Below, piece after piece: positions 6,059-6,228 of a DNA stretch of 7,551 nt. This DNA is from a virus. Taxonomy: Monodnaviria; Loebvirae; Hofneiviricota; Faserviricetes; Tubulavirales; Inoviridae. The DNA lies in IMG/VR virus record IMGVR_UViG_2565956711_000002, positions 1 through 7,551 of that record; one strand, written 5' to 3'. The position numbers and the translations under genes were made by a program. The notes beneath the pieces were generated by a model that did no database searches, was not told where the DNA came from, and was given only the letters and a program-made list of their open reading frames with translations. Every line of letters starts with the position of its first letter. Position 1 is the stretch's first letter.

Positions 6059-6059
6059 A

Positions 6060-6096
6060 GGCAGCTGCGGGGAGAAATTCTCGCAGCTGCCTTTTT
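6060..6096 (+). terminator. Intrinsic terminator (10-bp GC-rich stem plus T5)
   Basis: GGCAGCTGCG (6060-6069) pairs with CGCAGCTGCC (6082-6091) around a 12-nt loop, followed by TTTTT (6092-6096). Lies downstream of the 88-aa ORF but on the far side of the dif-like site. Confidence 0.6.
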
Positions 6097-6104
6097 GACA
6101 TATG

Positions 6105-6146
6105 GACATTTCTAACGAGCCAGTAATTAGACATTTCTAATGAGCC
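6105..6146 (+). repeat. Two 17-bp direct repeats GACATTTCTAA(C/T)GAGCC with 25-bp periodicity, flanked by TTGACA hexamers
   Basis: Copies at 6105-6121 and 6130-6146 differ at one position. TTGACA occurs at 6094-6099 and 6146-6151. The core ACATTTCTAA also occurs at 5325-5334 in the rep / small-ORF promoter region. Confidence 0.6.
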
Positions 6147-6228
6147 TTGACAAATATAAACCAAGGAAGAATCCAGTCGTTGGCGGTCATGATTGTCATG
6201 CTCATTAACAATGACCAAACCCCATATC

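Follow-up and report, generated by a model that had tools for sequence, protein, structure and literature searches.

A filamentous prophage joined to an insertion-sequence remnant at a dif-like site beside hipA

Genes and features of the locus

The 7,551-nucleotide stretch of DNA analysed here (the window; IMG/VR record IMGVR_UViG_2565956711_000002, Inoviridae) contains a filamentous prophage and the chromosomal gene hipA, and the interval that separates them, 6059-6228, runs from a site resembling dif, the chromosome's dimer-resolution site, to the hipA stop codon. This interval is a mosaic of three parts, 6059-6102, 6103-6152 and 6153-6228. By their sequence, the first two parts (a hairpin/terminator with the complement of one arm of the dif-like site, and a terminal inverted repeat) form the right end of an insertion sequence (IS), and the third is chromosomal spacer. 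The junction is a mosaic of known elements, not a new system.

The left part of the window is filled by the right two-thirds of an Inovirus-type prophage with genes on the minus strand: Zot/pI (1-1035), a DUF2523/pVI-like gene (1039-1326), a pIII-like gene of 620-627 amino acids (aa; 1337-3220), the major coat gene (82 aa; 3285-3533), two small genes between the coat gene and the replication gene, and this replication gene of the pII/X family (4139-5254). A 62-aa open reading frame (ORF) and then an 88-aa ORF (5759-6025, taken from the ORF list, the last of the phage and without a Pfam match) lie on the plus strand, 3' of the replication gene along the window. The interval under study comes next, and after it hipA (6229-7551, minus strand, 440 aa), as given by the ORF list and the RefSeq annotation of matching loci.

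Positions 1-6062 correspond to a CTX-type (Ypf/CUS-1-like) filamentous prophage, with one mismatch (position 3472) to the phage of locus L014, which likewise shows one mismatch over 1-5530. The exact 88-aa protein is encoded in 456 collection blocks, invariably within the same phage, and exact look-ups placed this protein and the 620-aa form of the pIII-like protein solely in canonical prophages with other chromosomal surroundings; the 627-aa version gave no exact-protein record. Among 50,697 records of deposited phages there is no close relative, the sole near match being 44 bp to If1. The same phage, 99.8% identical over 1-6102 of the window, occurs in loci L014-L033 (GCA_046559515.1, GCA_032193595.1 and others) as tandem arrays of 2-3 copies in contexts without hipA (glutaminase, mannitol-dehydrogenase and fimbrial neighbourhoods), whose hosts may be other Enterobacteriaceae.

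The dif-like site and the normal end of the phage

The dif-like site, "site 1" of the phage attachment site (attP), lies at 6032-6058 on the plus strand. As detected by a scan for dif arms, it reads AATGCGCATAA-TGACG-TTATGCTAAAG, with a XerC-like arm at 6032-6042, a 5-bp spacer at 6043-6047 and a XerD-like arm at 6048-6058. It carries two mismatches to the E. coli dif in each arm and is the sole such site in the window; as a control for chance, a site of this kind arose in 2 of 200 shuffles. Site 1 is the same in every phage copy examined. Compared with the 28-bp chromosomal dif of E. coli (GGTGCGCATAATGTATATTATGTTAAAT), it agrees at 9 of 11 positions in each arm, but its spacer is 5 rather than 6 bp and its orientation is inverted, the XerD-like arm facing hipA where in K-12 the XerC arm does so. 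Its distance from the hipA stop also differs, being 170 bp (6059-6228) rather than the 76 bp of the K-12 BW25113 reference (locus L001; dif 576-603, hipA stop 680). The original prediction had correctly held that the spacing is longer than in K-12, and its value of 80-100 bp for K-12 was close to the measured one. The site is not the chromosomal dif: it is phage/IS-borne, forms half of a two-part phage attachment site, and contains the prophage boundary (6034-6062).

The normal end of the phage was established from about 35 copies (PEC148, NCTC9040, five IMG/VR contigs and 20 loci from other hosts). Every copy ends with the 88-aa ORF, site 1 (AATGCGCATAATGACGTTATGCTAAAG), the hairpin ggccgctgcgggattc[t/g]attttcgcagcggcc and a second, inverted dif-like site, site 2 (...caacataacgagtcacacattatgcgcacc), which usually reads caacataacgagtcaNacattatgcgcacc and in one variant group ...acgcgttgacattatgcgcacc. 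The junction with the chromosome in these normal copies is the XerC arm of site 2. As single-stranded DNA, the packaged strand of the intact attP folds into a forked hairpin (-31.6 kcal/mol, z -6.8), in which the XerC and XerD arms are paired, the centre is bulged and the hairpin between the two sites forms the tip.

This layout is that of CTX-phi, Ypf-phi and CUS-1-phi, the latter two of which have been classed as CTX-type (PMC4246890; PMC4266046). The likeness comprises the two inverted dif-like sites that fold into a forked hairpin on the packaged strand, the perfect dif on one side of the prophage and the hybrid site with a chromosomal XerC arm on the other, and the tandem arrays that are common among the phage copies. 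For complete copies the genes called are G2P_X_C, Zot, DUF2523, Secretin and small ORFs, with no integrase listed. In PEC148, NCTC9040 and an IMG/VR prophage contig (L010), the right junction is a hybrid site, ...cacacattatgcgcacc followed by chromosome, in which the chromosomal XerC arm is kept, and at the left end of the NCTC9040 array a perfect dif directly abuts phage DNA. A model of CTX-type integration, with XerC single-strand exchange on the packaged strand (the minus strand of the window), reproduces both junctions seen in PEC148 and NCTC9040. Exchange at the boundary between XerC arm and central region is apparent in PEC148, NCTC9040 and L010, but not at the right junction of the window, which is without the chromosomal XerC arm. 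Unlike the CTX-phi-type phages, the terminal copy in the window has lost site 2 and the hybrid dif and retains site 1 only, leaving an incomplete attP, and the sequence is not near any deposited phage. As a separate observation on NCTC9040, the DNA left of its regenerated dif (L038, 6179-7579) is not the K-12 neighbourhood and contains a site-specific integrase gene and IS1 copies; the terminus region of this genome is rearranged left of dif too.

The right end of a transporter insertion sequence

The strong terminator-like hairpin that had been noted at 6060-6096 is real, in that a stem formed by 6060-6069 and 6082-6091 is followed by five T residues at 6092-6096. Folded as RNA, 6055-6100 of the plus strand yields -32.3 kcal/mol (z -7.6, with 0 of 200 shuffles as good), and the minus strand of the hairpin region yields -22.3 kcal/mol without a U-run. 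The scan for consensus terminators, which allows loops of up to 8 nt, missed this hairpin, and an Rfam search of it gave sub-threshold chance matches only. Judged from its sequence, the plus-strand hairpin with its T5 should end transcription coming from the 88-aa ORF, a role that its phage counterpart would also play. This GC-rich, terminator-like element (6059-6096) is, however, the variant found in a transporter IS, ggcagctgcggggagaaattctcgcagctgcc, not the phage variant, and in the IS the hairpin likewise sits 3' of the cargo gene. It is followed at 6091-6102 on the plus strand by CTTTTTGACATA, the complement of the XerD-like arm, which can pair with 6048-6060 and is the last segment homologous to the phage attP (where it reads CTTTTCAACATA). 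Together these parts lie in an inverted repeat, I1, whose halves (6041-6069 and 6082-6110) are 79% complementary.

The next 50 bp (6103-6152, plus strand) are the right terminal inverted repeat (IRR) of the IS, identical at 39 of 50 positions to the left inverted repeat (IRL) of the full element in strain MB50. The IRR ends in ...ACA (5'-TGT on the opposite strand) and contains two 17-nt repeats, GACATTTCTAACGAGCC at 6105-6121 and GACATTTCTAATGAGCC at 6130-6146. The original prediction had read these as phage-like, but they are subterminal repeats of the IS. On this sequence evidence, 6103-6152 is a solo IRR of a transporter IS of the IS1202 family (ISAba32/ISAjo2 subgroup, related to ISKpn21). 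The remainder of the IS is absent from this position, and the IRR stands at the expected distance, with 6153 being the first base after dif. The remnant, which is devoid of IRL and transposase, is presumably immobile. A reading of 6125-6152 as a degenerate hybrid dif was rejected; this segment matches the IS left end instead.

The chromosomal side of the interval is intact. Alignment with the K-12 dif-hipA interval, which had been proposed as a check, shows homology only from 6153 (AATATAAACC...), the first base past dif, and 6059-6152 is therefore not K-12 chromosome. The unaltered 76-bp spacer between dif and hipA occupies 6153-6228, and over 6150-6930 the window is 99.87% identical to K-12, with a single mismatch (6150-6152 is 'aca' in the window and 'acc' in K-12). 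The hipA side was matched in 4,857 of 5,426 complete E. coli genomes, and in all but two of the matches listed it starts at 6147-6158. The spacer begins with AATAT (6153-6157), the 5-bp target site of the IS and the right copy of its duplication. The empty site in K-12 reads gcgcacc-AATAT-aaacc, with a single AATAT, whereas MB50 has gcgcacc-AATAT-[IS]-AATAT-aaacc. The chromosomal XerC arm of dif, which would be expected to abut 6153, is missing from the window, in which only one AATAT is visible.

Read towards hipA, the MB50 locus comprises dif, AATAT, TGTAGAGGCTCAATGCTAATGTCTATTTGTGGCTCATTAGGAATGTCCA..., the gene for a 465-aa ISNCY transposase, that for a Shedu nuclease, the internal dif-like site, the hairpin, ...TGGACATTTCTAACGAGCCAGTAATTAGACATTTCTAATGAGCCTTGACA, AATAT and hipA. 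The full IS in this strain measures 2,761 bp and is inserted 5 bp from the XerC arm of dif; its ends (IRL TGTAGAGGC..., reverse complement of IRR TGTCAAGGC...) are 50-bp imperfect repeats with TGT termini and a C at position 9. Full copies were recovered in MB50, NCTC9040, pCO_Eco4457-1, pMS20659 and a further locus (L029), each inserted 5 bp from a XerC arm with the IRL proximal: gcgcacc-AATAT-IRL in MB50 and NCTC9040, and gcgcact-AAGTC-IRL at the plasmid Xer site of pCO_Eco4457-1 (IncHI1A). Four independent full copies are flanked by target duplications (AATAT, AAGTC, AATAT and AAGAT). The 465-aa transposase of the full copies, which the window does not encode, matches NF033594 (transpos_ISNCY_2) with 483 bits against a cutoff of 250, matches the Pfam families HTH_23/28/29/32 and, weakly, rve, and is 72% identical to a RefSeq-annotated transposase of the ISKpn21 family.

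These properties are those of the ISAba32/ISAjo2 subgroup, or "dif site hunters", which in PMC10132070 and bioRxiv 10.1101/2022.12.17.520857 are described as inserting 5-6 bp from the XerC arm with the IRL proximal and as having TGT ends, a 5-bp duplication, an outward -35 element in the right end and, in ISKpn21, passenger genes; a conserved C at position 9 of the IRL is likewise given in bioRxiv 10.1101/2022.12.17.520857. The transporter IS and the ISKpn21/ISAba32-ISAjo2 subgroup are thus alike in their position 5 bp from the XerC arm of dif or of plasmid Xer sites, with IRL proximal, in their 5-bp duplications (AATAT, AAGTC, AAGAT), TGT termini and C at position 9, and in the outward TTGACA of the right end, the 465-aa transposase with helix-turn-helix (HTH) and DDE parts, and the passenger gene. 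They differ in that the inverted repeats are about 50 bp long and contain two internal repeats, against 24-26 bp reported. Circular copy-out intermediates have been reported for ISKpn21 only (PMC4048246). Of the full transporter IS, the window keeps only the last ~120 bp (6034-6152), from the dif-like site to the IRR.

Several side observations concern the same group. The outermost bases of the IS right end (6147-6152) form a perfect -35 hexamer, TTGACA, that faces outward to the 3' end of hipA, in agreement with the outward -35 of copy-out-paste-in ISs; a second TTGACA is located just past the hairpin (6095-6100). In pMS20659 (L008, 5115-5145), the left end of another IS1202-family element directly follows the right 5-bp duplication of one transporter IS, and in another locus (L036, 3620-3660) three ISNCY transposase genes stand in a row, as stacked insertions at one Xer site of the kind described for ISKpn21. 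A different IS1202-family element, encoding a 448-aa transposase and a 131-aa HTH protein, is present on both sides of a tandem prophage array (L024, 1600-1700; L025, 11280-11360), and the IRR of its left copy abuts phage DNA 5 bp beyond phage site 2 (AGTGC). These ISs appear to target the phage attP or the tandem junction as well as the chromosomal dif.

The mosaic and its crossover interval

The right end of the IS is widespread. A search with 6040-6175 found it in 726 genomes at a coverage of at least 80%, about 13% of complete E. coli genomes, and MB50 and EC09, both prophage-free, carry the segment with 100% identity, as does NCTC9040. It is also carried by 564 plasmids of Escherichia, Klebsiella, Salmonella, Enterobacter, Citrobacter and Pantoea, and the identity of the window with IncHI1A and other plasmids reaches 6154. 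From 6036 to 7551 the window has no mismatch to MB50, and a per-base view extends this identity to 6034. The whole of 6059-6228 is consequently found, with the same spacing, in a prophage-free chromosome, an outcome that the original prediction had named as telling against its view; this holds for MB50, not for K-12.

Since the window hairpin is the IS variant and the two elements overlap at the dif-like site, site 1 of the prophage has been joined to the internal dif-like site of the IS. Bases specific to the phage end with 6032-6033, and those specific to the IS start at 6063. Between them, 6034-6062 is a 29-bp crossover interval, TGCGCATAATGACGTTATGCTAAAGAGGC, which is common to phage and transporter IS and essentially coincides with the dif-like site itself; the sequence is phage-type on its left and IS-type on its right, and the boundary between prophage and IS lies within it. 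The original suggestion that phage-derived DNA extends past 6058, or that the junction has been remodelled, was right as regards remodelling and the presence of non-K-12 DNA past 6058. A phage origin of 6063-6152 is not borne out: this sequence is in none of the ~35 phage copies, and the DNA that is foreign to K-12 is not phage DNA.

Origin of the junction

As a whole, the interval is best explained as a prophage-IS mosaic joined via the common dif-like site, most likely by an intramolecular deletion, an explanation to which a probability of about 0.75 is assigned. The precursor would have resembled NCTC9040, with dif, the prophage array, site 1, the phage hairpin, the hybrid dif, AATAT, IRL, the transposase and Shedu genes, the IS internal site, the IS hairpin, IRR, AATAT and hipA in this order. 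This precursor junction exists in NCTC9040, where site 1 and the IS site lie 2,739 bp apart in direct orientation, and in a second phage-bearing genome, E. coli G5, ISKpn21 is in the same place, at the identical AATAT site beside hipA. Deletion of the 2,739 bp that separate these direct repeats within one molecule would eliminate AATAT, IRL and the genes for transposase and Shedu together with the phage hairpin and hybrid dif, and its product would read CCCTAATGCGCATAATGACGTTATGCTAAAGAGGCAGCTGCGGGGAG across the join. The reaction could have been catalysed by XerCD on the two direct dif-like repeats, or by RecA or slippage on the 29 bp of identity. A crossover at a Xer-type site in the dif activity zone suits XerCD, but RecA-dependent exchange or slippage could also take place at 29 identical bp that adjoin strong palindromes. 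If the prophage array is laid out as in NCTC9040, its far end should hold the working chromosomal dif.

Several points weigh against this explanation. Natural Xer sites have spacers of 6-8 bp, and RecA-dependent exchange requires identity not much shorter than 29 bp. The spacer of the common duplex site is 5 bp, against 6 bp in the dif/xrs sites encountered here and in the dif/xrs spacers tabulated in PMC10132070, and Xer catalysis on the common site is thus putative. The NCTC9040 phage is only 98.9% identical to that of the window, so that this genome can stand only as a model for the precursor. The exact junction is a single observation: exact 51-mers and 47-mers across the join were absent from GTDB representatives and JGI metagenomes, a degenerate pattern (phage-type left part, gap, IS IRR) was absent from these and from IMG/VR, and at least 80% of 5950-6330 was found in 5,426 complete E. 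coli genomes only in PEC148 (at 89% identity), which has a canonical junction. Finally, the window does not reach the left end of the prophage, and deletion and insertion give the same right junction.

Insertion would have occurred if the double-stranded replicative form of the phage had recombined, through its site 1, with the dif-like site inside a resident IS, in a VGJ-like duplex Xer reaction or by homologous recombination. The 29 identical bases of the IS site and phage site 1 would permit such an event, which yields exactly the observed right junction, and for Ypf phage there is a report of insertion into imperfect sites or through homologous recombination (PMC4266046). The whole prophage would then lie inside the IS, with IRL, transposase and Shedu to its left, beyond the window, and the reciprocal left junction would run from these into cttGTGCGCATAATGACGTTATGCTAAAGAGGC, giving the hybrid cttGTGCGCATAATGACG...GAGGC followed by a phage-type hairpin and site 2. 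This reciprocal junction was found in 0 of 5,426 complete E. coli genomes, though only three carry this phage, and there is no example in ~25 loci from other hosts; the 5-bp-spacer duplex site raises the same doubts here as for deletion. Insertion is therefore considered unlikely, and we infer the direction of the event in favour of deletion, roughly 3:1.

The other possibilities fare worse. A collapse of the 29-bp repeat in the draft assembly of an NCTC9040-like genome would account for a junction that is unique among all collections searched, but the repeat is shorter than the usual assembly k-mers and read lengths, and the flanks are otherwise perfect matches to real parents and are joined in register, which makes an assembly chimera improbable. 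That the phage genome itself reaches the chromosome past 6058, with 6059-6152 as a variant phage end or attachment site, is suggested by the ~80% homology of 6059-6102 to the phage hairpin and XerD-arm complement. It is highly improbable, however, as the IS right end of prophage-free chromosomes, and of plasmids from five genera, matches 6063-6152 at 100% identity, 6103-6152 is the inverted repeat of the IS left end and is in none of the ~35 phage copies, and a canonical junction must retain the chromosomal XerC arm that is missing here. Canonical CTX-type integration always keeps this arm and cannot give the window junction. Canonical single-strand integration straight into the IS internal site, which does have a XerC-like arm (TGTGCGCATAA, 10 of 11 positions) and a XerD-like arm, is the least credible and is excluded by orientation: the packaged strand is the minus strand of the window (pII, pVIII, pIII, pVI and pI genes), XerC cleavage on it is at site 2, and such an event would put the secretin end, rather than the 88-aa ORF, beside the IS hairpin with the phage genes on the plus strand, opposite to what is observed.

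An attP-like module in the insertion sequence

The overlap that made deletion possible, on the preferred explanation, belongs to a conserved part of the IS. Full transporter-IS copies (L003-L008, L029 and L034-L036) have a common right end corresponding to 6034-6152 of the window, and in all variants of the group the IRR is immediately preceded by a retained dif-like site, hairpin and XerD-arm complement. A stretch of 22 nt, AATGACGTTATGCTAAAGAGGC, does not vary among the IS and phage copies examined, in contrast to the loops and the cargo. The cargo genes observed (Shedu, SIR2, STM4504/AbiJ-like and Doc toxin) are mostly anti-phage or toxin genes. The variability of the cargo has its right limit at the exact outer edge of the XerC-like arm of the internal site and its left limit at a hairpin motif, GTTCGGGTGTCACAGAACCCCGAACCGCTTCGCGG, which lies just before the variable cargo in all transporter-IS variants and twice in the Shedu version. 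In the window this 44-bp motif is found at 5598-5641 (plus strand), 5' of the 88-aa ORF, and is 95.6% identical to part of the "major intergenic region" of If1, about 210-255 nt past gene IV; from its sequence it may be a minus-strand origin or another replication signal.

The arrangement has some likeness to the dif modules of Acinetobacter, which are bounded by inversely oriented pdif sites: in full copies, the transposase and cargo lie between the targeted dif and the internal site, with XerC arms inward, although the left edge of the cargo is the hairpin motif rather than a second Xer site. ISKpn21 itself is without the module of dif-like site and hairpin, so that the conserved homology to a filamentous-phage attP inside the IRR sets this group apart from it. 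A text search of two papers on the IS1202 family, PMC10132070 and bioRxiv 10.1101/2022.12.17.520857, found no mention of an attP-like module, and within these sources a conserved phage-attP-like half-site in this IS group appears to be undescribed. A speculative and rather unlikely reading is that the cargo slot derives from a phage and is a functional recombination interface, at which XerCD (or replication functions of the phage) could exchange one defence gene for another and join the IS to CTX-type prophages resident in the cell. The window would on this reading be a natural product of such activity, in which a prophage deleted the adjacent Shedu defence gene together with the transposase.

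Further features of the window and its relatives

Two small ORFs near the junction were rejected as genes, there being no RefSeq annotation of them under the 6040-6175 match in the 40 chromosomes listed. The ORF 6048-6218 (minus strand) lies almost entirely over the hairpin and the IS inverted repeat, and the ORF 6147-6485 (plus strand) is antisense and runs into hipA. In some strains with elements at this position, hipA is damaged: in M2021-10044802/2-E (L003, 12194-12889) only a gene for the N-terminal domain is annotated. In the IMG/VR contig L010 (about 6200-6300), hipA homology breaks off soon after the stop-proximal end.

Within the prophage, a 20-nt inverted repeat (5265-5284 and 5299-5318, 80% complementary) adjoins the only sigma-70-like promoter match (5321-5350). 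Both sit where the replication gene and the 62-aa ORF diverge, and 5265-5350 could be the operator/promoter of a small repressor-like gene.

Implications

As regards annotation, the dif-like site is neither dif nor the end of the prophage. Pipelines that delimit Xer-exploiting elements by dif-like motifs would misplace such a boundary and overlook the IS remnant. All the components are of known kinds, and the specific recombinant and the attP-like module of the IS are leads of modest interest. In a wider sense, the dif-hipA spot of E. coli is common to two parasites of dif, the CTX-type filamentous phages and the IS1202-family transporter ISs with their anti-phage genes, and the two can recombine through a common 29-bp dif-like sequence. 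If this recombination is indeed driven by Xer, it would give a prophage a means of eliminating the defence gene beside it, or allow defence cargo to be traded, and would provide a testable link between Xer recombination, transposition and the turnover of defence islands.

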